Source: Haliotis cracherodii
Lineage: Eukaryota
NCBI RefSeq assembly: GCF_022045235.1
Contig: NW_027266297.1
Coordinates: 34,844,001 to 34,908,000, forward strand
Direction of reading: 5' to 3'
Length of the DNA stretch: 64,000 bases
Under the pieces are notes generated by a model. The model ran no database searches. It was not told where the DNA came from and saw nothing but the letters and a program-made list of their open reading frames with translations. Of this stretch, positions 1 through 63,728 are shown piece after piece. A program made the position numbers and the translations under genes. Within the stretch, counting starts at the first letter, position 1; the number at the start of each line of letters is the position of its first letter.

Positions 1-305
1 CACATGACGTTACTGTGGCTTGATGGGAAGCATGACAGGCCGTCAACTGTTGAAGAGTGATGGTGTGAAAGCGGGGATGCATGTGTGCAGGACTTCTACT
101 CTGTGGGGCCGGCCCTAACCTATCCCTTTCATGTTTGCTTTTTAATGAAGGGACTTAAGTAGAGTTTATTATGCTGTATCCATTGGGTGCACATATGTGT
201 TAAATCAAATGGCAGTGCCCTAAAAGAGCCACTTTGTTCTGATATTCTCCAGTCTCAACTGTAATTCAGAAGTAAATGTATGGTAGGGATCTCTCCATCT
301 CCAGA

Positions 306-468
306 GGTGGTCAGGTAGCCCAGTGGTTAAAGTGTTAGTTCTTCACGCCAAAAACCTGGGTTCAATTCCCGACATGGGTACAATGGGTACCATTTCTGGT
401 GCCCCCCTCCGTGATATTGCTGGAATATTGCTAAAAGCGGCGTAAACCCAAACTCACTCACCCACTCG
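306..468 (+). mobile_element. tRNA-derived SINE, family A
   Basis: A box (tagcccagtgg), B box (ggttcaattcc), (ACTC)n tail, 15-bp TSD ctctccatctccaga at 291-305 and 469-483. Confidence 0.9.
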
Positions 469-1420
469 CTCTCCATCTCCAGAAATGTTTAATCACAAAT
501 GCACTTGACCATCATATTACCAAAATAAGTTAACCCTGATATGTCATTATCAATTAGAGTAAACCAACTTTCCAGAAATTAACCAAATTATCAACATTTC
601 ATAATGAGTGCAAGGGCTTTATGTAACCACCGATTTATCTGATCCAGACCCAGTTATTATGGCAGCCATCATGTTGCTAGAATATTAAGGACTGCGGCTT
701 TAAACAACAATTAAGCATGTTCTTTTTCGATCCGTAAATTGTATGGCAACAAGTTCTTCTCAGTGTTCCCCTGAAGCACCTGCAAGATAGGATCAGTTGT
801 TCCCCTGTTAGCAGCCAGATACACAGTTCATTCTGCAGCATCATCCATCACATACTGGCATCAGCTCGGATTTCAACACTTTGTAAAATATGAACCTAAA
901 AACAAAGGAGGAAATGTCAGGACTGCATTTTCAGGAGAGAAAAAGCTGTGATACACCCTCAGCATACCTCGCGGAGAAAACAGCATCAGTGTCTTTGATA
1001 ACCGAGAAATTGTTTTGGGGGTGTGAATGACAATAGCGCTAATAAGCATGTTTGAAGGTGTACCTAGTAACTTGTGTTCTGTCACACAGAGTACCAGGTC
1101 ATGGCTTCCAGATGGGTTATGTCACTTCTTGTAAGCCGCTAGGATCAGTGAGAAATTGTATCCGGTGTGACACAGTCACCCTCACACTCAAATTGATGAG
1201 CTCAGACTCCCAAGAAATACACTTGCACAAGTCTCTACAGGCATTATCAGTTAATCTAACATTCACAGTTCATTTTTCTTTGAATTTAAAGTAAAGTTTA
1301 AAAAAAGTTAAATTTGGATAAAATCAAGAAATTTAATTCCAAATAGAAGACTGACGTCTTTAGGCTAATTACCAAGTTTTAATAACCGTAATGACACAGG
1401 TTTTTCCTCCTTCAGTCAAG

Positions 1421-1552
1421 GGGCTGTGGGGTAGCCTCATGGTTAACGCGTTCACTCCGGGTTCAATTCCCCACATGGTTACTATGTTTGAAGCCCATTT
1501 CTGGTGTATTGCTGGAATATTGCTAAGAGTGGCATAAAACCATTCTCACTCA
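1421..1552 (+). mobile_element. SINE family A (internal deletions)
   Basis: A/B boxes, shared tail, TSD ctccttcag(t/a)caag. Confidence 0.88.
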
Positions 1553-3688
1553 CTCCTTCAGACAAGCCTAGGAGCAAGGCTATCCCAGCAATGTCTCCAG
1601 TTGTCCCCTGGGTCCTGAATGGTTATATTATATCACTGATATTCGGAAAATAATGTACTTGTACTTCATTGATCGATGAAAGTAAATCACAAGCTCATCA
1701 GCAGGTCATTCTTATGAAGGCTTGGGCCTATTTCTGTTTTTGAAGAATCACTTTCAGGGACGGATTTCTTCAATCTGATTTGCTACTTGCAGAAATGGCT
1801 ATTAAAACTGAAACATGTCCACCTGTCATCTGGATGTTATTACTAATATCGATAACCCTCCAGATGATTGTCAATGACAGAATGCATTTGTTTGGGGGAT
1901 GTGGGGGTGGGGGGTGGGGGGTGGAACAGTGTTGAATATTTACATTACTCTTTCCAAGACAGTTGAGCCAGAAAAAAATCCACCTTGTTTAATTAGCTGC
2001 TAAGGGCGGTAGGAATTGTTGGTGAAAATGATCCTCCAATAAGATATTGTTGAAGCACCAGCAGGAATTGATGGGAAAGGTGTTTGGAGCCTGTAGATGG
2101 CTGGAGGAAACTGAACTTCTCTCTAACCCTTGCTAGAATGAACTTCGGTATCTCTTACAGTTGATGATAGACTGATCTGGATAAATATCTCTCTTGTTTT
2201 CATGGGCAGGAAAAAAGGCAAGTTTGATTCCTTTGGCATACCGAGCGATAATTACACATGTTGCATGGCCTGATGGGTCTTCATGAATGTTTGAACATGT
2301 ATATTGTGTGGACAGGTGTGTAATTGGTCTTCAGAGGTGTTTGTGTGTTCTGTTTCTGCCAGTGTTGTCACTTCATCACATGAAGCCAAGGTTTCAACTG
2401 AAAACATGAATGAATTGGCAAGTCAGTATAGGCACATATATACCATTCAGACAACAGCAGACATTTTATTGTTTTGTCTGGTTGTTGTTTGTGTCTTAAG
2501 GCCATTTTAGCAATTAACATGTATTGAAAACTATTTAACCTAATGCTGAAGGTAAACATGTTAAAATCGGGTTCATATTTATCTTGACCTTCTGATCATA
2601 ATTAGTAAGTGCATTCAGGGTAGTTGAAACTTGATGCATGAGTCTTAAGTGGTTACAAAATGATTATTTGTTATTGAATATCTACCTTTGTTTGTATTCG
2701 AAACAGTGCTGGGCTTTTGGGAAGCAAACTTTTCAAAATAAACAAGTTGGATCTTTATTCTTCCACACTGCTTCATCATTGACGTAAGGCATTCATGAAT
2801 GTAAAAAAAGCTGAACTCTTATTAACCCCACATGTTTATTCATGAGTGATGAATAATATCAATTACGGTATTGAATAAAGGATATATAAGGTGCCCTAAA
2901 CTACCAAGAGAAATGTTTTCAGATGACATGTGTGTTGCCATATGTCAGCCAAATTATTTGTTTAACAAGTAATTAATTTATAGTGACCTCACCGCAAGGT
3001 TCTTTTCTGTAAGGGTTTCAGATATTGAGATATATTTCAGAATAGTTCAGAATATGAAAATTTAAGGATAGTCAACGTAGATTTCATATATTTCTGTTTG
3101 TGGAATGAAATTCATTACTCTGGTGTTTGGTTGGACAGCTGTCTAATTTCGCCATTTTGGCAAGTCTGTTGGCATTTAAAAGCGCAGGCTTTTTACTGAA
3201 TGTTTTTTATACTAATCTGGAAGGAGAACAGCTCGTTGTTTGTTTTCCCAGTGTATCCATCTTTCCATCTTTAACTGCGACATCTACTGTGTTATTCTGG
3301 TTTCCACTTGTGAGTCTTCTCACACAGACCCACCGCAAGATGAGCTAATGGTTTGTTTATGCTGAGATCTAGTTTACCCAACATCTCCTAAAGAATGGAT
3401 CGTCTGCACCCTGCATTTACTTTCTCAAAATAAATGTCTTGCACTCTGTTTGGAGGCTGCAGATAAGTATGAGCATTTGGTTATTGTCCGCTTCATGCAT
3501 GAGTTGAACATCTTCCAGAGGAAGGTTGTGAATTGACGTGGTCTTTTAGGATGTTGTAACATTAGAGGGTTGATGCGGGATTGGGGCATTCTAGAAATAA
3601 AGTGATGTATGTATGGAATGTGGGCTGCAGTAGGGTTGTGCCCCCCCCCCCTTCGACCAACTTGACCCTTGTCATTCTCACATTTGGT

Positions 3689-3852
3689 GGGGGGCGGATA
3701 GCCTAGTGGTTAAAGCGTTCACTCGTCACGCCAAAGACCCGGGTTCAAATCCCCGACATGTGTACAATGTGTGAAACCCATTTCTGTTGTCTCCCGCTGG
3801 GATATTGCTGGAATATTGCTAAAAGCAGCGTAAAACCAAACTCACTCACTCA
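3689..3852 (+). mobile_element. SINE family A
   Basis: Full length; TSD ctcacattt(g/t)gtg. Confidence 0.9.
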
Positions 3853-6207
3853 CTCACATTTTGTGCCCTCAGTAGGTGCAATATTAGTAAAACCAGCCAT
3901 TTAAACCTACATACAACACACACTTTAATGGTTGTGAATATCCTATTAGGCTGGCTTCATCTATGTATAAATCTAGCTCACAAACCCCAAACAGCACTAT
4001 TGTTTCCAGGACCACATAATTACATTTGTAAGACTTAATAAGGTCTAAATTAGCATAAACCAAACCACATTAATAAAAATAAATTTGGAAATTGCTCGCA
4101 TCTGGTGCCATACCTCCCTGACAATGATATAACGAAGAAGCGTCTACCAGATGTTGCATCTTAGAGAAGCAGCCGATTTCCCACTGAGATTTTAATGAAC
4201 ATAGTTCCAGTTTACAAGATGTCCTCTTCGTACCTCATTAGTATGCCACTTATAGCTGTTTCCAGTTTAAAGATGCTCTTATATCCAATTAGCTTGATAA
4301 AAGGACCAAGTTGCTTTGAATAATCTGCATTTTGGTGTAAATTTTGGTGACATGGACAGGAGTCTTTGAAAAAGGGAGATCATTTTCAAAGGTGGTGTCG
4401 CGTTACATGCGTTTACATTAAATTGTCGCTTGAGTCAGCGTCAATTATGATCAAACATGTGATAAAGCTGAAACTGTTGCCTTCTTGTAAAACTGTAGAG
4501 CTTTGAAACCTCAAAGAAACTCTCTTTTCAAACCTACAAAAAATAAGGCCTCGTTCCCGTTAAGATTGATCATATAATTGTGTGAGAAAATTATGTTAAA
4601 CTCAAGATAAATGTATTAGCCTAACTACAAATAGTTTTGTACCAGAACCATTAACCATCATTGACAAATTATTTCATGACCAGCTGGAGAGTGCTCCTTT
4701 ACTTATATCATTTTCACAATAAGCTAATTGATCCCAAAAGCTTTCGCCATTTTTTATTGTCCTACCATTATAATGGGCAGCTGTTGAGTTTTTGTCAAAG
4801 ACAATGCAATCAGGGAACGTCATAAATAAAGTGTTTTCATCCTTGTCAGTCAAGTGGAACATTATGTCATCATATGTCCAATGGAGCAAGGTTGAAAATG
4901 ATGGCCTCACAACAAAGCCAAACTCAGTTGATGTTCTAGCCTTGACAAGATGGTGTGTATAGATGGAGTTTTGTGGAAGATGATGTGAGAGAGTATTTGT
5001 GGATGGACATTTCAAGCAGAACCTGGCATTAAATGAATCAATCTCTTGAGAATCAGCTGTAAAAATATATACCAGTAATTCTTAAAAGTTATATTTGTTG
5101 TTGTCTAGAGGATAAAAAATATTCAACTTGGACAGATGAGGATGTAATATGAAACACAGTTTAGAAGGATTTGTTAATGGTGTTTTTGACACGCCCTCCA
5201 AGGTGAGCCTTAAAACTTGGGCATATGGCTTAGAATTGCAGAGAAAGATGCCAGTCTCAAGCTCCTTGCTGTGATGTGTTAGGGTTTTAACTCACAGATT
5301 ATGGCTGTCTGTGTCCATGTAACCAGATACAGGAGAAACTTAGATTTCCTTCCAACCTTCCTACAGGATAAATATTTGTTTCTCAGCAGGACCATCTATG
5401 AAAAAATGAAAAAAAAAAGGTGGAACTTTGATTGCCTCTGCACGATAAGTACATCTGATTGATAAAGCTTACACCTGTTTAGAAATGCAGTGGTGAGGGC
5501 CTGAGGATATTAAACAGTCATAATATATCTGATATCCTGCAAGATTTGCATATCCAAATGTTGAAAAAAAATCAACATTAACTCTTATCCTCCAAGATGT
5601 GACACATGATGTTATAAATGTCTTGAATAGTTGTTGTGATATCTCTAATAAAAATGTCAGAATTAAGTAATTCACACAAATGTCCTGAAACACTTTTCAT
5701 GATAGCGAAATACACATGTCCATGTTTGTTAGAGTAACGCAAGGAAGAAGAATATTAATTTCTAAAGTTATGAAAAAAACTTTAAATTCCCCAATAGAAA
5801 AAGACTGCACTACAAGATACAAGTGATATCACAAGGAGCACCTGTTCAAGTCTTCTCTCATGGAGGCTGAAAAGTGTATGTTTGCTCAAGTTCATGTTCC
5901 CAGCAGATGCCTCTCTGTCAGACCAAAAGACTCTTTGTGCCTTATGTAGAAGCATTCCCCAAAATTGCTCTATGTTTAGGCTACAGCTCTTTGATGGATT
6001 ATCCAGATTGGTGTGTTTTCTGACAACTGGAGAGGTTTTCAACATTTGGGCAGTTGAGGTACTTGATCATTGAAGCTGTTGACATGACCTGTGCTGAAGA
6101 TAAGAATGAAAGGTCCCATGCATTGGCTTACCACTGTCAGTTATTTTATCATTTGTGTCTAATTTATCTGGTTCTCTAGTGGAATAATGAGGGTTCTGTT
6201 TCTCTCT

Positions 6208-9541: not shown

Positions 9542-10895
9542 AGATCATGATCACTAGACCACAATGATTTTTGTCAGAATAATGTTATTCATCCCACAGA
9601 CAAGTAAGAACAAACACAATGCCTCTCGCTATCTTCCCCATCTGCAGTGTCCAGGGATTGGCTACATGTTGGTCGTTTTCACTCCTCCTTGCTAGGCTAG
9701 TATCCTATATGTGTTTTTATACCACACTACCACAACATGTACAAGTGTTTCCCTTATTGGCCTCACTTGAACTGACGGGCATAACGGTGTACAGCCTGGG
9801 TGCTAATAGGCATGGAGTGATTGATTGTTTTCATTTTGCAAGAACAGAGGACCTGACCACTCAGAAATGTTTATATACAGTGGATTAGTGTTTTAAGTCA
9901 AGGAACATTATGAACAGCTGGTTCTGGTGCTAGATCGAGATATTAAAGGGAGTGAGGGGATGGAATTGTGATGGGTCTCGCGGGTCATGTTGAGTCGGGG
10001 AAATGTAATGGCTGTGTGATGCAGATGTGCACTGAGGGGCTGGGATGGGTTTGTCTCCCTGTTGAAGAGAACAGTATTTACCCACTTGTCGTACGCCCAA
10101 GCCTCATAACATTTCTTTCGGTCAAGTAAGCTTCGGCAACAGCCCATATAAAGAGTAAAACCTGTTTTGGGAAAGTAGGCTCTGGTTGTGTCACAGAATT
10201 GTCTTTCTTTCAGACTCCAAGCAAATTAACCATTCTATTTTCGACCCCTTCTCAGCTCTAGCAGCCTATATGCATCCCTTTTACAGCCCCTGAAATGAAG
10301 AGACTCTTAAGAGATGAAAGGCTCTTTTAATGCTCATTTGTTCACTTATAGAATGATTTCTATTAACCGTACACATAGCTATTTTTCTGGGACTATGTGT
10401 AAGTCTGGGACATGGTGCGAAAGGGGAGTGGTGTCTTATCATGCAGACAGGTGATATCGAGGATGGTTGTAGGATGATCTAGTATCCGGTTGGTTCAAGT
10501 GCTGTATCTCATGTGATAGGAGGAATCTGCTAGGATGGATGGAGAGCTTGGCTTGTCTCCTGGGTGGTGTTGACTTGATGAACCTTCTTTCTGGTAAAAG
10601 GTAGATAAGTTAATCTTGCCCATTGACATTACTGGTTTTGAGGGGTAGAAAGGGTAATTCTAATGGATCAGATGGTTGGGCCTGTTGACTTAGTTGATAC
10701 TGTGTCCTTGTACCCCAGTGATGTGGATCGTAGCTCATGATATCTATCACTGTCAAGGCTGGTTCAGATTTGATTATTTAGAGGCCACTGTCTTCTAGAT
10801 GGAATATTGCTGAGTGAAGCAAAAAAAAAACTTGCTCTGAACTTGGGTCATAGCATCATTTCAGTACTTTTTGTGGTGACCATGTGGACTTCCTG

Positions 10896-11242
10896 CAGCC
10901 TCATGCTCTCTGACCTCCGACAGCCTCATGCTCTCTGACCTCCGACAGCCTCATGCTATTTGACCTCGACAGCCTCGTGCTCTCTGACCTCCGACAGCCT
11001 CATGCCCTCTGACCTCCGACAGTCTCATGCTCACTGACCTCCGACAGTCTCATACCCTCTGACCTCTGACAGCGTCATGCCCCCTGACCTCTGACAGCCT
11101 CATGCTCCCTGACCTCCGACAGCCTCATGCTCACTGACCTCCTACAGCCTCATGCCCTCTGACCTCCGACAGCCTCATGCCCTCTGACCTCCGACAGCCT
11201 CATGCTCTCTGACCTCCGACAGCCTCATGCTCACTGTCCTCC
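10896..11242. repeat. Minisatellite, 25-bp unit, ~14 copies
   Basis: cagcctcatgctctctgacctccga. Confidence 0.95.
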
Positions 11243-12280
11243 ACCAGAAATGTTTTTGAAGCACACAGGCATCTGAGGTGTGATGACATATTCCACAATC
11301 AAACCTTCACTAAATCGTCTGGTTTATGGGGACGAATCATATCTTGGGAGCCTTTTAACTTACTTAAGTGTACACTATGGAACATTAATTCTTCCTTGAC
11401 ATTTTGACATACTGTGTTGGCTCGCTCTGTGCCAGACATGCCCTGTTGCAGCTTCTCACCCAATGCAACTTTCAGAAATTCTCTCAGTGATGTGACAGCC
11501 TTAGACTCGAGACTCTCACATTAACTGGACGTCTACACTAAAACTACAGACAGAGAGACCTAGAAATAGACTAATCTGATTGACTATTTTGTGTATATGT
11601 CATGTAGATCCTCGAGCCTATCTTCCTGTAGGTCTCTGTGGTGTTACTGTAGGCCTGGTGTGGGTTGCATCACTCCACGAGCAGAGAATGTAGGTAATTG
11701 CACTGATATCATCAACGAACAGGTAATTAGTGACTGTATGGAACACAGAGGGTGATGTATAGTGTACAAGTCGCACTCACACTCGGGATGCTTACACCAA
11801 ACTACAGGGCTATCTTCTAGCCTGTATCTCTCCATCTTGTTACGTTAGAAATTACCCTGTTAGTGTAAAAAGTGTGACTTGTTTTGTGTGTTGTCAATGA
11901 AGTGTGGTTTACTTCTATACACTACTGATCCCTATCAAATCAGCAGAAACCGAAGTTTGTTTAACATGCAATCAGGGATTGAGGCTGTTGTTTTTCACAG
12001 ACAGTTTGCTTTCTGAAAGGCATGTGGAAATAGTTGGCAAATAAAGTCATAATTTCAGTTGAGTAAATGCAGCTTCTATTGTCTTCCACAAGATTCTGTC
12101 TTCTACTGATAAACAATCATGAAAATCATTACTGAATAAGACGTTTTCATTCAAATGATTGTCCAAGCAGGACCTGGAGTAACTGAAAATAATAGACCAT
12201 CAAAACAAACCATTCATAACCAACAATCTATGTTGAGTTCACAACCTAATCACTCATAAATCATTGTTCCTGACAAGATA

Positions 12281-12446
12281 GGGGCGGTTGGGTAGCCTGG
12301 TGGTTAAAGCGTTCGCTCGTCACGCCGAAGCCCCGGGTTCGATTCCCGACATTGGTACAGTGTTTGAAGCCCATTTCTGTTGTCCCCCGCCGTGATATAG
12401 CTGGAATATTGCTTAAAGCAGCGTAAAACCATGCTCACTCACTCAC
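12281..12446 (+). mobile_element. SINE family A (putative donor of the flank carried by the 14655 copy)
   Basis: Full length; TSD tcctgacaagat at 12268-12279 and 12447-12458. Confidence 0.92.
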
Positions 12447-13237
12447 TCCTGACAAGATGAGTATGAGAAAACAAGTCGCTTCTACGCCACTATTACAGTC
12501 ACTTGTATAGATAGTTGTTCACTCACACAGGTGTCTAAGGCGACAGAAATCTATCAAGATGGGTTCATTCCCAGTAAAGAGTTAGCATCTGTGACCTGCA
12601 CCACTTCGGGCTTTCCTCCCACAGAAAAGCTGATATTCCGTGATATAACTGAAGCACTTTTCAAAAGCTGGGTTAAGCCAAGCTCTCTAACTCATTGTAA
12701 GAACATGGTGAGAATATGTCAAGAAGTTGATCTCCAAAGAAGCCCAGAATTTTCCCTGGATCCAATTTGTGTAGGTATGGAGTGAAGGTCTCACCCTAGT
12801 CAAGTCTGCTGATAAATGCCAAGCTTATACAGCCATCATGTCAGAGGTGCCAACTTTTTACCACATCTCTACAGCCTGTTATTCCACATGTGGACAGTCT
12901 TTTGTTGTTGTGAGGATTGGAACGCCGACTCGCATGTCTGATGTGCAGTCAGCTTCTAGAAGCAGGCGGGTGTCAGGGGAGGGGAGTTACACTTACTAAA
13001 TTGTCAGAAGACGAGCTGAAAGTAATGAATAGGACGTAAGAACCTCTGGACAGAATACCAAGAGGTGAAGCTTAGCTGACCAAGCTGTGACACAGAACAT
13101 GAATCTTGGCCCCGAGTCAAGTTGTGGCTTGACTCATCAGTGCCTCGTGTTGCTCAACATGGACAAATGACTGCAGGTTACAGTATGGTGAGATCTGGTT
13201 CCCATCCCACACAGCACTCTTACCAATATGATGGGTG

Positions 13238-14010
13238 TAACTCCCATACTTTGATACCGACTTCCAACACTTGTAGCATTAAGATGATCGTAACTCCCAT
13301 ACAGTAAACTGTGTTTGTAACGAACACGCTTATAACGAACTGACCGATATAACGAACTTATTTTTTAGTACCGGCCATTTGTTGTAATTATGTTGTACAT
13401 ATGCTTATAACGAACTACGGTTATTATGAACTACAATTAGAGGTCCCTTTGACTTCGTTATAACTGTAGTTTACTGTACTTTGATATAGACTTCCGACAC
13501 TTATAGCATTAAGATGAATGAAACTCCCATACTTTAATACCAACTACTGACACTTGTGGCATTAAGAGCATCGTAACTCCCATACTATCAAATAGACTTC
13601 CGATACTTTTAGCACTAAGATGGACACTTGTAGCAACAAGATGGACACTTGTAGCAACAAGATCAACACATGCAGCACTAAGATGAACACATGTTGCACT
13701 AAGATCAACACTTGTAGCAACAAGATCAACACATGTAGCACTAACATGGACACATGTAGCACTAAGTACGACACTTGTAGCAACAAGATCGACACTTGTA
13801 GCAACAAGATCAACACATGTAGCACTAAGATGAACACATGTTGCACTAAGATCAACACTTGTAGCAACAAGATCAACACATGTAGCACTAAGATGGACAC
13901 ATGTAGCACTAAGATCAACACATGTAGCACTAAGATCAACACATGTAGCACTAAGATGGACACATGTAGCACTAAGATGGACACATGTAGCAACAAGATC
14001 TCTTTGTGCC
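13238..14010. repeat. MITE-E-derived tandem array: ~53-bp units then ~19 copies of a 21-bp unit
   Basis: aactcccatactttgata...cacttgtagcattaagatg units, then tagcactaagatcaacacatg. Confidence 0.9.
13302..13476. mobile_element. Tc1/mariner (pogo/Tigger-like) MITE
   Basis: TA|CAGTAAACT...AGTTTACTG|TA; removing it restores cccatactttgat of the host repeat. Confidence 0.87.
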
Positions 14011-14654
14011 CTTGCATGACTCACTTTCAATGGCTGATATTGCTAAAAAAGTGACTACAGGTTACAGTACGTGTTAAAAAAACAGAGGAGTGACTCCATC
14101 AGCAGGTGTTTATTTCTGCTGTTCACTTATCACTATAGCGTTTTGGGGCTGGTTCAGACAGACCTGCAAGCGGGAGTGCACCAGCCTGAAGTTGTAGTGA
14201 TGTGAGCCACATGTACGGCATTAAGTTTAACATTACTGGGTCTTCCTGTTGGGTCATGCCAATGTATTGGGTCTTGTAACAGTCTGGGGATGTAGGGTCA
14301 GCGGAGGAAGGCAGGTGAAACTAAACATGTTTGCCAGACTTTTCCAGACACCCACACTAGCTTACTTCACATCAAATATACTTCCTCTACTAAATATGCT
14401 TCCCCTCCTCTTCAAAAGCGTCTTATCTATCCCCTCTACCATGAAATATATTAACATGCATTTGACTTTTACATCTTGTATCAGCGCAGTAGGTGAGTGT
14501 TATTGATGCTGAGTTTGCTCATGCTAAGACATAAAAGGTGTTCTAATCTTGGCGCTACGCCTACCCTAAGATTGGGTTAAGCATTGGAGGACTCAGTTTT
14601 AGAGCTGGTATTGCTTTGTGGAACAGAATCTTGGTCTTTGCTCAGTTGTAATAA

Positions 14655-14845
14655 GGGGTGGTCGGGTAGCCTAGTGGCTAAAGCGTTCACTCGTCACGCC
14701 GAAGATCCGGGTTCAATTCCCAACATGGGTACAACGTGTGAAGCCCATTTCTGGTGTCCCCCACCGTGATATTGCTGGAATATTGCTTAAAGCGGCGTAA
14801 AACCATACTCACTCACTCACTCCTGACAAGATGAGTATGAGAAAA
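14655..14845 (+). mobile_element. SINE family A plus extra 3' segment copied from 12447-12472
   Basis: TSD ctca(g/a)ttgtaataa at 14641-14654 and 14846-14859 encloses SINE plus extra segment. Confidence 0.9.
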
Positions 14846-16685
14846 CTCAATTGTAATAAAGTGCTAGAATTGCAATGCTATAATCCCTTCGTTTTAAAAA
14901 TTGAGTTGCTTCAATATTTCCATGTGGGTGTAAAGTGAGAAGGCCCCCCACATTATTAAAGTTGTAATATTGCTAGGATTAATCAACACTAGAGTGACAA
15001 AAGCAAAAGCTGGGGTAAACTTGTGTGTTGAAAATGGAAATGTAAATCAGAAGCCTTGTCCAGTACAGTGAAGTGTACATCCTGTTTGCAACCAGCTGCT
15101 TGAGAAGGAAGTCAGTGCTGAAACCTGTTACATACAGAACTGCTATCTCTATCAGATAATCGTGACTACCGCTATCACTGTACCAAGTAACAACAATTTT
15201 TTAGTCTCATTAGCAGGACAGAAATTACCAAACACATTAAATTTGTTATTTTCCACATTTGAGAAACCTTTCTTAATTTCAGAACATCTTTTGTAAAAAG
15301 TAGAAAAATCTTGATACAGCTTAAGTTACAGTTTTGAAGGCTATGGGTTTGTAGGTTCTTTAGAACATTTTTAAACTGTTTTCATTAGAGGTAATAACCC
15401 TGAGATATATTATGGGAGTTTGTTGAAACAAGTTGTTTTCAAGATACCATGTTGCACAGTGTCATGAGTTACATAGGGGATATGAGAGCAAAGCTGGTGT
15501 ATAACTTTCATCAGAGATGTTAGCTTGCGTAACACCTGCCAACTGTGAAACTCCTGCTGGTCACCCATCCAATGTCTGTGTTACTTCACTCTTGCCTCGT
15601 TTCATCTCCTTGTATTTACATTTTGTATGCTCATTTTCACTCTGGGAAAGAAATTGGGCCCCCGAATTCGGAGTAGAAACTTGAATAAATATTTGATCAA
15701 GATCAGTATAATTGTCAGTATGGGTATGTATGAAAAGTCTTTTTATCATGGAGCTCTTGTTGCAAAGCAGATTTTATGATGTTCGTAAATGGCTAAATTG
15801 AACAGGATGTTGATCTGTTGGGTTCTGTAACAATTTGAGGAATGTTTGTTCGAGTCACAGTCAGGGGATCCAAGGTTCCAATCAGTCCCCAGGCACCTCT
15901 GCTGGTCAGAAGAGGCCTTTTAATGGATCTGATGGTCAGACTAGGTGACTTGGTTGATAGTGCCTCATTAGAACCTGAAGGCATGGATCAGTATTCACAG
16001 CATTGATCACTAGATTGACATACCCTTTCTTTCTAAGCTTTTATTTACTCCAGGGAGAAGTAGTATAAATCTAACATAATCTAATATGATATTGATAGAC
16101 AAAATATTTGTCTGTCTCACAGTCCCTTACTATATTCATTTTCTCTTCTGTCCAGGCCTTCCCATAATGCTGTAGCCTTAAATGAAGCAAGTCTACATTT
16201 TCTCCAGGTTCAGGCCCACCTCACTGGGGCTCCTTTTCAATATAAATAGAGTTGAAAAATATGTTATTGTAGCCTCATACACAAGTGATAAAACTGTTGT
16301 TGATGTGAGTACAAATATAAGATACAACAATGTATGATACATGTATGTACTTGTATATATGTGATAACACACTGTGTGAAAGAACAGTGTGACTTTCCAG
16401 AAGAGACCCAGGATATAATAACTATAACACATCTTCCATGTCAGCGCATCTTCAGGAGAAGGACCTCAACTTCTTTAATGGCTACCCATGCAGGGGAGAT
16501 ACCAGAAGGCAACTACACCAGCATTTAAGTTTATGATGATAGCTGATCCAGGGAGGGTTGAGATGGTGGAGCAGCATGGGGTTACATATATCAAACTGCC
16601 ATCAGGGACTCCATCTTTCTCCCAGACAGGCAGGTTGGCTTGTAGGCTGCCCAGTTGGGGGTGGGATAACCATGAATGAGGTTTG

Positions 16686-21875: not shown

Positions 21876-22733
21876 CCAGCTCTGGTGTAAATGTCAGCAA
21901 AACGTCCATCAACATGGTTTACCGACATCCCGCTTGTGTCGTCGGTCTGTTGCATACAGGTCATTTTCCCCCAGTTACCCGTATTCATTTCACTGACAGT
22001 GTGTGAAGCATTATGGGGTACCATTATAACTCTACCATAGGTCCTGTTTCATTCAGGTTATCCATTCAACAAATACAAACAGTGTTTAGATATGATGGTA
22101 ATGTTTAACAGAGTAATGTTGTGTTTGTAATCCTACCTCTCTTGATTTGATGCCATGGAAGTCACAGGCTGTTTTGTTCTAAGCCTACGTCCGCAGTGAA
22201 TATGTGGTTGTGATGATATCAAAAGTGAAGTGCTGCTTTAGATTTTTCGCCCTTGAGAGAGATTTTATTTCACGTCTGCTCTTTTGTGAATGTTTGTTCT
22301 GCAGATGTGAGCTCATCAACCAACTTCAAACCTACCTATCTCCTCCAAACTCACCTAACAAACACTTGAAACTGACACACCCATCTCAAAGCCTTCCATC
22401 AGAACACACCCAAGTCCCATCCGCCAGTATGGTTCCAGCCATCAATCACAATATTCTCCAAAGCATCAACTTCTATCACAGGAAAGGCTTTCTCCTTTAT
22501 TTTGATGCCACTTACTTTTCTTCAAACCACCAAAACATTTCCAAACACACCACCGAAAACAGTTCCAAACGCACCACCATTTAAACATTTATAACACACC
22601 AGCAAGCACAATGACCCCCCATCCACCCCACCCCAACTTCGTGTCCAGTGTAGGTCTAGAAGTCTAACAGCTTTTGTAAAAAGATTTTGACTAATTGTAA
22701 TACAGGTTACCATATATTGCTATAGAGAACCAG

Positions 22734-22840
22734 GGCCCACTTGCACAAAGCAATCTTAGCGCTACGACTATTGTAAGCCTATGTTAAAGTATGGGAGTTA
22801 CGATCAACTTTGCGCTAAGATCACTTTGTGCAAGTGGGCC
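22734..22840. mobile_element. MITE family E (PIF/Harbinger-like)
   Basis: TIR GGCCCACTTGCACAAAG / CTTTGTGCAAGTGGGCC; CAG/CTG (CWG) flanks. Confidence 0.85.
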
Positions 22841-22989
22841 CTGATCTAAGACTAGGAGGCAATACAAATAGTGGTTGTAGGGCCTGTTTCAATCTGGTCC
22901 TTCTCAGATTGAAAGCTGATTGGAGATATATATACCCCTGCCTCAATATTATCAAGTAAAGATAAGAATTTATGGATGAACAACTTCTT

Positions 22990-26060: not shown

Positions 26061-27308
26061 CCTAGGTGTGGTCCAGGTGTATTCATTAGGGTCAGTTCCA
26101 TCTGGACATGTTAGTAATGCAAGATGTTCCTTCTGATCGCTATAATGTGTTGATGGTTGTGGGTCAAGTCCACCAGGCCTGCGAATGAGGCAACACTGGT
26201 GTTGATTATGTAAGAGTGATGCTGCAGGTGTCCTGGTGGAATTGGTATCACTGACAGCGCAGGAAGGAATCCTTGTTACTTGTCCTGACATGCCAGAACC
26301 TGCATTCATTAACCCCACTTCAGAATGAACAGGAACTTGTACAGTCCACATCCAATGACGTCGCAAAAGTAAATTAATGAGAGAAACTTGCACAGTCCAA
26401 ATACTCCCATAGAAGTAGATTAATAATAACTTATATAAAGCCTCCTTACAATAAGGACATTAATCAAAGATAATGCATATATTTGTACTTTTATTGTTGT
26501 ATTGATGGATCCAAGATGCTATTACTCATAAGATATTCATGACTATGTTTTGAATAATGTATACACTTACTTGTCTTTGAAGTTACTTGTTTAAAAGTGC
26601 TACAGATTCAGCACCCATACAATAAAGTTACTGGTAGATAAATATTAATATTGTAATTCTCATTTGCTTTCTTTTCTTTGTTTGTGGACCCTACTTGGAT
26701 AAAAATCAATCAATCATAGATGTAACTTTGTAATATCACAGACCTCTATTCAATTATTTTTTATTGCCAATGTATAGAAATACTGTTGACATCTTTTCAC
26801 ATCCTACAATAACCATCAAAGAGTAAATATTCTTTATGAGATGTGTTGTAACTGCATTGAAACTTACATTACTAGAAAAAATACATTTGCAATCAACAAT
26901 CTGAGAGCAATGTCCCAGTAGAAAATGGAAAGGAAGACCCCCTACTGTGAGAACATACGATAATAAGACCTCCATGTTTTTTTAAGGGAACACAACAAAC
27001 GATAGAAACAGATTTCCTCACAGGAAGATATGATGATTAATCACTGCGATACAAGTATTAAATTTCAATCAAGATCTGATGAACTCGGCCATGATCTTCA
27101 AGTTGCATCTATTTTACTTGTTTCTACATTACAGCAACTCTTGAATAAAAACTGCAATGTGTAACCCATCGTCTGTAAAGAAAACCTCCCGAGATGAGGT
27201 AGCTGGGCCGTGACTGATGTCAAAAGCAATGAGCACATATCAAAGTGTTTTTGCTGTGGGAATATGGAAGAGACATCAGTGAGGGCAGGGTTTTGAGTGA
27301 ACACAGAA

Positions 27309-27565
27309 CATGAGCTGTGGCTGGGAGTCACACAATGAGCTGTGGCTGGGAGATCCACCATGAGCTGTGAGATCCACAATGAGCTGTGGCTAAGAGTCAC
27401 ACAATGAGCTGTGGCTGGGAGTCACACAATGAGCTGTGGCTGGGAGATCCACCATGAGCTGTTGCTGTGAGTCATACAATGAGCTGTGGCTGGGAGATCC
27501 ACCATGAGCTGTGGCTGGGAGATCCACCATTAGCTGTGGCTGGGAGTCCTACAATGAGCTGCACC
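27309..27565. repeat. Minisatellite, ~25-bp unit, ~11 copies
   Basis: atgagctgtggctgggag. Confidence 0.93.
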
Positions 27566-28146
27566 ATGACTATGGAATATATGTATTTTATGAAAACAAA
27601 ACTCAATCTAAATTTACATAAAAGCAAGTCTAGCCAGTACGAAAACTCATTTGCTTTAGTTTTAGAGGAGAGGAATGTATTACGTAATAAAGATTTCATA
27701 GACTATATATTAGTCTAGGAGATCCACAATGACATGTTGCAGGGAGTCCCACCAGGACCTGTCTCTGACCTGTAGCTGGTAGCTCCACCATGAGCTGTTT
27801 CCATAGTGCTGATATTTTTTACCATGTCATGAAGTAATGAGACTCCTCCCACTGAGAACACCAGCATGTTGGCCATGTCCCTGAGTGCAACCTTATATGT
27901 TCCTTTGCCAGGTTGAGATGGTTGTGTTTGGATGCGTTCACCAGAGAATATGCATTATGACACTGTCTGATATGCTTCAATGATGAAAAGTGGTGTAAAT
28001 TATTAAATTAATGTCAATTTTAGACGGAAATTAGTTGGCATCAGTTGTTTGAAGTCATATGGGTAACTATTTTTTTAATCTCTCTTGTTGAAGTTGTGGT
28101 AAGTGAGTGCGAGTTATACAGATACCAAGTACCCTCTGATTATAAT

Positions 28147-28312
28147 GGGGGCGGTCGGGTAGCCTCGTGGTTAAAGCACTCGCTCGTCACGCCGAAGACC
28201 TGGGTTCGATTCCTGACATGGGTACAATGTGTGGAGCCCATTTCTAGTGTCCCCAGCCATCATATTGCTGGAATATCACTAACAACGGCGTAAAACCATA
28301 CTCACTCACTCA
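28147..28312 (+). mobile_element. SINE family A
   Basis: Full length; ttataatgg flanks. Confidence 0.9.
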
Positions 28313-28328
28313 TTCTTGTTATAATGGT

Positions 28329-28390
28329 TGGTTGGTTGGTTTGTTGTTTAACGCTGCACTCAGCAATATTCCAGCTATATGATGGCGGTC
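28329..28390 (-). mobile_element. 5'-truncated SINE family B, antisense, at the TSD of the A copy
   Basis: Reverse complement of gaccgccatcatatagctggaatattgctgagtgcagcgttaaacaacaaacc; third ttataatgg follows. Confidence 0.8.
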
Positions 28391-30992
28391 TTATTATAAT
28401 GGAACACAGTTAGACCAGGATGGAAACATGCTGCTTTTACAAAGACCCATAAAGACCATCATGACACATTTCCAGAGCTGTTACTCTTAAAATGACAAAC
28501 ATTTGGGTCGGGTAAAAATGTTGGTTCTCAATATCAACTAACCCTAAAGAACAGAAGTAGCAGGATGTTTTTGTGTAATTGTATTATCGACTTGAAACAA
28601 CCTGAACTGATCTTCAATAATAATCAAACTCTGTCCTAGATGTTTCCCTGTCTACAATGCATGGCGTCCTTATCTTCACAGTGCCAGCAATAGGTTGTTC
28701 CCAAACACCTCGCTGGGATGACATGTTGTCATTCTGAGGAGCAATTACTCAGTCAGTGAGATCATGGTGTTATGGATGGTGATGGGACATCTTGTTTTTC
28801 TTATCATTATTGCAGGGGAGGAACAACATTGTTTGCATTCATGACGTTATTCTCAAAAGCAGTGAGAGGGAAAGAAGCTATTGCTTTACAATTGCTAACC
28901 AGGTTGCCAGTTGTGCTGTTGGCTGTATAATTATGTATTATTAAACTCAATATTTGATAATGATCTTTATCATGAAAAAGTCTTAACAAATGAAAGAGGT
29001 TGGTCACAGTGTAAAAAAAACATTTTTGAAAGAGTAAATGAATATTTATTTCACTGCTAATGTTATTTTATCTAAATTTTGGTTGTATGTGGTAAAAATG
29101 GTGCTATGCATTATATATGTCCATAATGAATTAATCATCAATTTTTTTAATATTTTTTTAAATTATCACTTACAATCGTTGTGTGGTGAAGGCACCTCGT
29201 GAACTCTTGAAGGGATTTTAAGAGATAATTTCAGGAAAATAGAAAAAGATGACATAGCCTCCTGAATATGTATTCTACACCGTGGGGTTATTCATACCTT
29301 GATCAAAATGGGCAATAAAATGGAACTTAGGTGGGGAATTTGAAGTCAGTGAAGCAGTCATGGAAATCTAATGATTAGTTTTGGCCTAGGTTCCATGCAT
29401 TAAAACCAGGTGATACACAATTCCAAAGATAACTGGACGTACTGGAGTAGAATTCATTTTATGCCTGAAGGTAAAATTTTCAATCAGGATGTTATATTAT
29501 ATTTATTTCAGGCTAATTAAGTTTGTGCCAGTCAAGGTGAAAATCAATACATGGCAATTAGTTGTGAGTCCAAGAGATTCCAGGTTTGACAGCCATCCAT
29601 TTTGGAATTGCTGGTTCTGACAATATTCTAAGTGTACAAGACTTTATCCTTGTAGTATTGCTGTCTTGTGTTGATGCCAGCCATATGTTTTACCCATGGC
29701 CCTAATCCAGCGTTCAGGTTTGGGGCTGTTTTCAGTTTATTTTCCTATCTCCATTTCCCATACAGTTTGCTGGCTTCTTCAGAGGTCTACCAGGCTCTTC
29801 TCTCTCTGTTTATTTGTGTTTTGGATATAAAAGGAAAAAATAAACTTATTTTGAACTCCAGGCAAACTATGCATTGAACTTCAATGGTATGGTTCTTGGA
29901 CTATCCTTGTCTTTAGATAACATCCTGAATCTTTGTTACCCATCATGCTTTGTAAAGCGATGGTATCAAAGACAGTTTCCAGCAAATAATGACTTGAAGT
30001 AAATGATTCATGGAGGATTCCATTGCTGCCACGTGCCTTTCTTTCGTGCCAAGGATGCAGTTGATTTCAAAGGTATTATTTACATAAAACGTAATATTTC
30101 ATTAAGTATTGACTGTTTAAAGTGTGAACCTTTTTCAATAAGACATTTAGTAGAGACAACATAGAATAGGTGGGCAGTAGAGCATTGTCAGATACAGTGC
30201 TAAGGTTTCTATAGTGATGATCCTAACATTGTCATATTATCTGTCGAGAAGTTGACATGATTCGTCAGGCATGAGCACTTATTGAAAACAACTGATTGTT
30301 TCAAAGAATGGCATACACTTTTGGGAATGAAACATAGCCATTCTTCATAAGCCTGAACACTAACTATTGTGCTACCCCATATCTTTGAGTTCAGTGTCAT
30401 GCTAATAACAGTGTCACAACTGGGTAAAAGAGAAGTAGGATTCAAGTCTCCATGGTTAATATTCTTGAAATTCAATCTGATTTTCTCATGTTTTAAAACC
30501 TCATTTCCATATTGCCAGCTACATAGGAAGGTAGTTGTATCTAGAGTTGCAGGTTCAGAAAGACAAGCAAGGACAAATGTGTCCTAATTATCACTTTGAA
30601 ATGTGATGATCAGCGACTGAAATGTGTTTGGTTGTAAAAGATTGCGTTTAATCAGCCCAGCACATGTTCAATGCGGCCATTAGAGGGCCAGTATTGCTGA
30701 TAGACAACTGCTGTGTGAGGAAACTGCTGATTTGTTTTGACTTGTGTTGCTTGTAACAGATTCACCAGGGAAAGCCATGATACTTAAAGCGCATTTCACT
30801 GATAAATACAGCAGTTTTCTGTTGATACCTATTAACACCTAGTTTGGTGAAACCTAACTCGTTGATAAGATGGGTAGAATGTACATATTTTGGGATTAAA
30901 AACAAGCATTCTGAAATGGTACTGTACCAAACAAAAGCCAGTTTCACATTATAATGTAGTGTGAATAATGCTGAAGTTACACTTACTTTTTG

Positions 30993-35036: not shown

Positions 35037-63728
<28,692 letters not shown>

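Follow-up and report, generated by a model that had tools for sequence, protein, structure and literature searches.

The window analyzed in the present study is a 64,000-nt stretch of the Haliotis cracherodii genome (contig NW_027266297.1, positions 34,844,001 to 34,908,000 of the forward strand). It contains two neighboring copies of a short interspersed element (SINE), designated here as family A, and both are directly followed by the same 26 nt in the same orientation. The results obtained suggest that the flank of the second copy was copied from behind the first, and that similar captures recur elsewhere in the genome. Positions refer to the window unless C34 or C1 is given.

Anatomy of the two copies

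Members of family A are 166 nt long, with a head that resembles a tRNA and (ACTC)n repeats as the tail. The head gave a weak Rfam tRNA match (21.5 bits, E 0.033) below the gathering score of 29, and ARAGORN found no tRNA gene. The features of a tRNA-derived SINE were found together in this family: a tRNA-related head, a repeat tail, target site duplications (TSDs), and many dispersed copies. TSDs were present in 74/115 full-length copies, and the 3' motif has more than 18,000 exact matches genome-wide. Copies were compared in 1.86 Mb joined around the window, which holds these 115 full-length copies.

Copy 1, the donor, is a full-length member at 12281..12448 (plus strand, as are all features of the pair). 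It differs by 6.6% from the family majority and carries 10 private changes plus a T at family position 134 (T134). Its 5' TSD (12268..12279) is identical at 12/12 positions to 12447-12458, the first 12 nt of the 26-mer at 12447..12472. Since the 26-mer starts with the TSD of copy 1, it is native there and represents the 3' TSD plus flank, the presumed template. Copy 2, the recipient, is also full-length (14655..14822); it differs by 5.4% from the family majority and carries T134 and 8 private changes, all at positions 1-109. The tail of copy 2 is followed by the 26-mer (14821..14846; one tail unit and 22 letters of foreign origin), and this in turn by the 3' repeat of a 14-nt TSD, the two repeats of which differ at one position (14641..14654 and 14846..14859; mismatch at 14850). 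The 5' TSD of copy 2 starts with CTCA, in phase with the tail repeat.

Behind the captured piece stands a single ACTC unit (14845..14848), a remnant of the tail. Its first two letters are also the end of the donor segment, and thus form a 2-nt microhomology with the donor flank at the return junction. The entry junction lies within shared homology, in which tail and flank of both copies form an identical run of 39 letters. Without the 26 nt, copy 2 is an ordinary family A copy. As read in this genome, copy 1 retains its own TSD and continuing flank, and the transfer was, therefore, non-reciprocal.

With up to 3 mismatches allowed, the window contained no further match to the 26-mer (0 in 100 shuffles), and the two occurrences of the 26-mer were the only exact matches in the genome (1.18 Gb). 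The tail plus the start of the flank, with up to 2 mismatches allowed, similarly gave 2 matches genome-wide. A subfamily consensus was rejected based on these two counts. Segmental duplication was also rejected because the homology ends at the 5' end of the SINE and 24 nt beyond the tail. The original prediction, made from the window alone, had described the 26 nt as native behind copy 1 and as repeated inside a different TSD behind copy 2, with 5' halves that differ at many sites; the present results agree with all of these points and with the implied direction from copy 1 to copy 2.

Kinship of the copies and 3' transduction

Copy 1 and copy 2 differ at 18/193 positions, 15 of which are within the first 110. 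T134 is their one derived site in common, compared with 10 and 8 private changes, and at least one shared derived site occurs in 41% of 6,553 random copy pairs. Within positions 1-110, each of the two has more than half of the 114 other copies closer to it than its partner (63 and 69). The tail variant containing T134 (gcTtaaagc) had been listed as shared by the two. Both do carry it; however, it accounts for 2.7% of exact genome matches (491 vs 17,850) and is present in 7/114 local copies, including the focal two. The carriers have no other diagnostic change in common, and T134 was rejected as proof of parentage. These comparisons gave no apparent sign that the body of copy 2 descended from copy 1, although copying soon after the insertion of copy 1 would look alike. 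The probability of the 39-letter identity is 0.03 at the non-CpG divergence of the bodies (0.09 for 26 letters), which leans towards a later gain of the flank.

The original prediction regarded transcriptional read-through with local reinsertion as plausible. In this classical 3' transduction, RNA polymerase III (Pol III) would have read through copy 1, reverse transcription would have started 26 nt downstream, and the product would have landed 2.4 kb away soon after the arrival of copy 1; relatives would then have lost the 26 nt precisely. The flank inside the TSD and the same orientation of both copies agree with this scenario, as does the absence of a terminator near the end of the donor, which had been pointed out previously: the first T4 run past copy 1, a candidate Pol III stop, is at 12658..12661, about 210 nt beyond the tail. 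(This run is contained in an old family B SINE 3' fragment at 12588-12694, which starts 140 nt behind copy 1 and is 75-80% identical to other copies.) The shared T134 and the symmetric numbers of private changes, 10 vs 8, also look as if both copies had decayed after an early event.

However, landing within 5 kb in 1.18 Gb has a probability of about 4e-6. Priming is a further difficulty. The targets of ordinary family A copies are in phase with the tail by at least 2 nt in 44/64 cases (26% of random sites) and by at least 4 nt in 7/64 (1.8% of random sites). Excerpts from PMC6007223 link the TSD start to the tail repeat in RTE-related elements. In copy 2, the first 4 nt of the target are in phase with the tail repeat, as would be seen after priming on a tail, whereas a read-through RNA would pair over 1 nt only at the +26 position. 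Transduction thus requires 1-nt-pairing priming at a site that matches the tail by 4 nt, plus a precise later loss. According to excerpts from 10.1101/2024.04.29.591526, no such event was confirmed among 118,489 full-length human AluY copies. We consider 3' transduction to be very improbable at this locus, and the recurrent cases described below argue against it further.

The copy 2 locus in relatives and in reads

The focal locus was compared with contigs of three relatives (B, C, and F) and with one raw-read run, i.e., 4 of 18 listed runs. The contigs of all three relatives extend from the left flank 21-23 nt into copy 2, indicating that copy 2 is common to these relatives. On the right-hand side, the contig of B has 576 letters across 601 window letters (14800-15400), with 29 gap letters. 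A 1-letter deletion and a 2-letter insertion are the only gaps listed, which leaves exactly 26 deleted letters unlisted. An unlisted gap is expected where other SINE copies swamp the depth. The right contig of F aligns from 14845 only, with 2 leading letters unaligned. Relative C had no coverage immediately right of the SINE, and the raw-read run had no depth on the flanks.

Relative B, therefore, appears to have copy 2 without the 26 nt, as judged from gap counts rather than from allele letters. B thus has the SINE with 26 fewer letters by counts, which does not fit an element and a flank that arrived together, the direction of change being unproven. B and F read G at 14850, giving a perfect TSD of copy 2; the mismatch at this position arose in the present lineage. 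In addition, between 14495 and 14585, this organism differs from B, C, and F alike at 8 sites in 91 nt, with one such site listed in the preceding 440 nt. This lineage-specific substitution cluster, 70 nt upstream of copy 2, is unexplained, and no template for it was found in 1.86 Mb.

An assembly or polishing artefact, in which reads of copy 1 were merged into copy 2, was also considered. No junction-spanning read of this organism was seen; the raw-read run was sampled 1 in 100 and had no flank depth. However, six runs of this organism (2 studies), all of them flagged as possible sources of the assembly, hold 0.98-0.99 of 139 sampled words of 14050-15400, an estimated 2-3% of which should span the junction; runs of five other organism labels hold 0.31-0.44. 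Furthermore, the 18 differences between the copies continue to within 13 nt of the shared part, and the flanks of the further cases are diverged, unlike a product of merging. A local misassembly is hardly credible in light of these results.

Recurrence of flank capture

TSDs were called, without looking for donors, in three SINE families, 456 copies in all with an intact 5' end. The sample consisted of 402 copies on C34 and 54 in twenty 9-kb stretches of C1, which were centered on young family A copies and, hence, are not random. A TSD was callable in 245/456 copies; the 211 without one could hide events, including those with distant donors. Among the 245, 4 copies carried foreign flank inside the TSD: the focal case (case 1) and 3 among the 244 others. 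Cases 2 and 3 were first noticed in neighbor-sharing scans and afterwards listed by the blind scan, and case 4 came to light through its anatomy only. All captured pieces have two occurrences genome-wide.

In case 2 (family A; recipient head C34:34,416,746, minus strand; donor head 34,423,542, plus strand), the copies are inverted and 7.2 kb apart. In the recipient, roughly 170 nt of flank from the donor precede a tail remnant and the 13-nt TSD of the recipient itself. The captured sequence holds a terminator-like run, T6 in the donor and T4 in the recipient. At C34 near 34,416,500-34,416,620, a 15-nt unit also occurs five times just before the donor-like 3' end, which suggests that slippage occurred repeatedly at the switch point.

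In case 3 (family C; recipient head C34:34,200,552; donor tail 34,251,710; both minus strand), 127 nt of flank from 51.4 kb away is followed by a second copy of the SINE 3' end, the tail, and the TSD, joined at a 2-nt microhomology. The bodies differ at 26/209 positions with zero shared derived sites, while the flanks differ at 5/127. In case 4 (family C; C1:266,423-266,492), the only other genomic match of a 55-nt spacer lies 33.5 kb off, directly behind a tail-less family C copy; the recipient shares a 2-nt insertion with this donor. In cases 3 and 4, the 3' end of the recipient SINE resumes behind the captured flank. The exit junction is a 2-nt microhomology in cases 1 and 3, and recipient sequence is retained on both sides, with tail remnant and TSD.

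The donors are 2.4, 7.2, 51.4, and 33.5 kb away in cases 1 to 4, and none of the 4 captures from the 245 TSD-callable copies had a distant donor. The probability that a random donor lies within 52 kb is 9e-5. Ranked by the nearness of a family 3' end, the donor is the nearest in case 1 and the third in case 2, and has 31 nearer ones in case 3. Pooled over cases 1-3, non-CpG divergence was lower in the captured flanks (15/298) than in the bodies (45/408; p=0.003). Transduction cannot yield cases 3 and 4, and the piece captured in case 2 holds a terminator-like run. In the sampled DNA, the capture of a neighbor's flank recurs at roughly 1% of TSD-bearing SINE copies.

Proposed repair synthesis on a neighboring copy

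We propose that the 26 nt of copy 2 were copied from directly behind copy 1, likely after the insertion of copy 2, by DNA repair synthesis templated on the neighboring copy, and we consider this explanation to be probable. Initially, the insertion of copy 2 would have been like that of any other family member and would have left a perfect 14-nt TSD that overlaps the tail; this TSD is present today, and the relatives point to the ordinary state. A break or collapsed fork may then have occurred in the (ACTC)n tail of copy 2. The end upstream of the break would have annealed to the homologous 3' part of copy 1 at a distance of 2.4 kb, and synthesis would have continued through the TSD and flank of copy 1, a process consistent with the observed identity. 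The new strand would finally have been released and rejoined to the downstream end at the 2-nt microhomology that is visible at the junction, with the tail remnant and TSD retained. Candidate routes, which are not separable by sequence, are RAD51-type one-sided invasion with synthesis-dependent strand annealing (SDSA), a replication template switch, and polymerase theta. Belmaaza and Chartrand (1994), Richardson and Jasin (2000), and Tremblay et al. (2000) have reportedly dealt with one-sided invasion or SDSA-type repair.

Neighbor-templated break repair accounts for every feature of the captures. It fits entry through homology, exit at microhomology, the intact donor, the retained recipient end, locality, and either orientation. 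It also fits the terminator-like run in one piece, the tail-less donor in another, and flanks that appear younger than the bodies. The original prediction had also allowed for template switching or gene conversion of the 3' end only. This alternative is now favored by the unrelated bodies, the tail remnant, the apparent absence of the 26 nt in B, and the three further cases, two of which resume their own 3' end; read-through transduction with local reinsertion has become less likely.

Several points weigh against repair synthesis after insertion. In relatives, the missing 26 nt in B was derived from counts in one contig of one run, in which their position and letters were not read, and the support from F consists of two clipped letters. 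B, C, and F share many alleles vs this organism, such that, by parsimony alone, one precise ancestral loss between ACTC repeats would fit too. Relatives were compared for the focal case only. Regarding divergence, the difference between flank (0/26) and body (10/123) is not significant for the focal pair alone (p=0.14), and the pooled signal is driven mostly by case 3. The flank in case 2 (13/165) is nearly as diverged as the body (17/135), which allows capture close to the time of insertion. The shared T134 lies upstream of the donor-only changes at positions 140 and 153, and thus requires a long early tract or a coincidence of 3-5%.

Two controls also belong here: 12/1,500 random 100-mers have one other short copy 1-60 kb away, two of these 12 being an ambiguous SINE pair 49.8 kb apart, and a local match was likewise obtained for the one 60-mer chosen arbitrarily as a control. 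Since short local duplicates are common, local templated copying is probably general in this genome, and SINE homology steers rather than causes it. A piece that begins directly behind the 3' end of one SINE and is placed at the equivalent position of a second SINE is not what chance yields.

The main remaining rival is a template switch by reverse transcriptase. The enzyme of the partner long interspersed element (LINE) would prime on the SINE tail, at insertion or at a later break, jump at microhomology to the nascent transcript or DNA of a neighbor, and jump back. This accounts for tail-phase priming, the retained tail or 3' end, and unrelated 5' bodies and, with nascent RNA as the template, also for locality. 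Excerpts from PMC4824008 invoke switching between SINEs in mollusc SINE evolution. The flank divergence in case 2 and the 15-nt tandem expansion at its switch point are also consistent with a switch. However, had the switch taken place during insertion, a copy 2 lacking the flank would not be expected in B, and the apparently younger age of the flanks relative to the bodies argues for a later event. We consider such a switch unlikely. In its broadest form, the reverse transcriptase of the partner LINE itself copies locally at SINE tails, at insertion or at later breaks, by jumping to nascent RNA or DNA of a neighbor within about 50 kb; about 1% of copies, a thousand or more per genome, would then be local chimeras that record chromatin proximity in the germline. 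This form is also doubtful.

We concluded that flank capture is a real feature and, with repair synthesis on a neighboring copy as the preferred explanation, a variant of a repair outcome that is already known. No function is evident for the focal event.

Other candidates and features

Candidates were dropped before the count of 4 was made. These were copies with degenerate or long tails; local tandem duplications at the window-relative positions 106912, -627583, 264318, and -549271; microsatellite cases at 281095 and 281226 (window-relative); a copy from a longer family that has the same head (-503595); a copy with its 3' end doubled and no foreign flank (899155); a weak TSD lying far off, the segment of which has no source anywhere in the genome (336649); a (CA)n insertion; and a chance alignment extension. 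A nested inverted SINE at 28148 was also dropped; at 28148-28400, a family A copy is followed by a tail-to-tail inverted family C 3' fragment, apparently inside or beside its TSD. Shared-flank scans between tail ends were not exhaustive: one was noisy, one missed case 2, and tandem or segmental duplications made up most of the pairs. The filter used in a general search for short exact duplicates removed the focal pair.

The pair 49.8 kb apart was dropped as ambiguous. These inverted family C copies (C34 34,347,650 and 34,297,866) have 120 nt of 3' flank in common (about 91%), neither was assigned a TSD, and they represent a possible fifth case; one of them is beside a tandemly duplicated region with an exon-like stretch. 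At C34 near 35,743,155 (minus strand), a family A copy has a doubled, slightly diverged 72-nt 3' end in one TSD, without foreign flank, which may represent the same process stopping short of the flank.

Families A, B, and C have different heads and a similar 3' terminal motif before their tails in the window and the 1.86-Mb sample, suggesting one partner LINE. Two ACTC-tailed copies 186 kb apart (C34 near 34,425,280 and 34,239,094) are each followed by family C sequence from about the same position, which hints at a preferred target site inside family C. Between copy 1 and copy 2 lies a minisatellite array with a 21-nt unit (13540-14000), the left edge of which resembles a hairpin element at 22731-22843 and 59776-59881. 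Other minisatellites in the window are at 10840-11290 (25 nt), 27270-27590 (25 nt), 45090-46080 (30 nt), and 47230-47690 (about 101 nt).

Comparison with known systems

The usual grounds for calling 3' transduction are flank inside a TSD and a source element upstream. The captures described here show that this picture arises, most likely, without an element moving, and SINE transduction calls, therefore, need orthologous loci and a test of body kinship. Provided that 3/244 is typical (95% interval 0.25-3.6%), extrapolation from 208 callable copies in 1.86 Mb would put the number of such scars in the genome at around 300-4,700. Each scar names its donor, recipient, tract length, and junction. 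Such scars would make template choice by distance and orientation in invertebrate germline break repair measurable without reporter constructs.

The host of these families is consistent with an abalone: the sampled DNA includes a family that has a CACCT-type tail and a (CA)n in its interior, which fits the description of the Haliotis MESC/Meta SINE (Hdi, HalSINE1) in excerpts from PMC4758252 and PMC4824008. Family A, with 166 nt and an (ACTC)n tail, is not this SINE; it is set apart by description only and may already have a name.

As in the 3' transduction of LINE-1, SVA, and, rarely, Alu (excerpts from 10.1101/2024.04.29.591526 and PMC13141329), the source flank lies between the element and the 3' TSD, and the source element is directly upstream of the original flank. 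In contrast to transduction, the bodies are unrelated, the donors are always local, the recipient tail or 3' end stands behind the flank, and the element appears to be older than the flank. According to the excerpts available, a pipeline for canine LINE-1 transduction discards sources within 10 kb, and the AluY pipeline requires a gap of more than 70 nt (10.1101/2024.04.29.591526). The focal case would go unscored by both because of these cut-offs.

The insertions templated by polymerase theta, for which excerpts from PMC12426944 give templates that flank the break and are generally under 25 bp, resemble the focal case in that a short templated insert is joined at minimal microhomology, 22-26 nt being at the upper edge of the usual size. 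However, the templates identified here are 2.4-51 kb away, begin in SINE homology, and are 55-170 nt in cases 2-4.

In the literature searched, we did not find recurrent repair between SINE neighbors that mimics transduction; most subscription papers and supplements were outside this search, and its absence from print is not established. The closest likeness is to SDSA or one-sided invasion with end joining, and to fork stalling and template switching/microhomology-mediated break-induced replication (FoSTeS/MMBIR; excerpts from PMC4888836 and PMC7407515), which also have one junction in homology, synthesis past the homology, a return at 2-5 nt of microhomology, a nearby template, and an intact donor. 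In contrast to these systems, the present cases are natural germline scars between dispersed mollusc SINE copies; they occur in two SINE families and lie inside the TSD, and thus imitate retrotransduction. The repair chemistry is known, while its recurrence and its mimicry of transduction between SINE neighbors are the new part.

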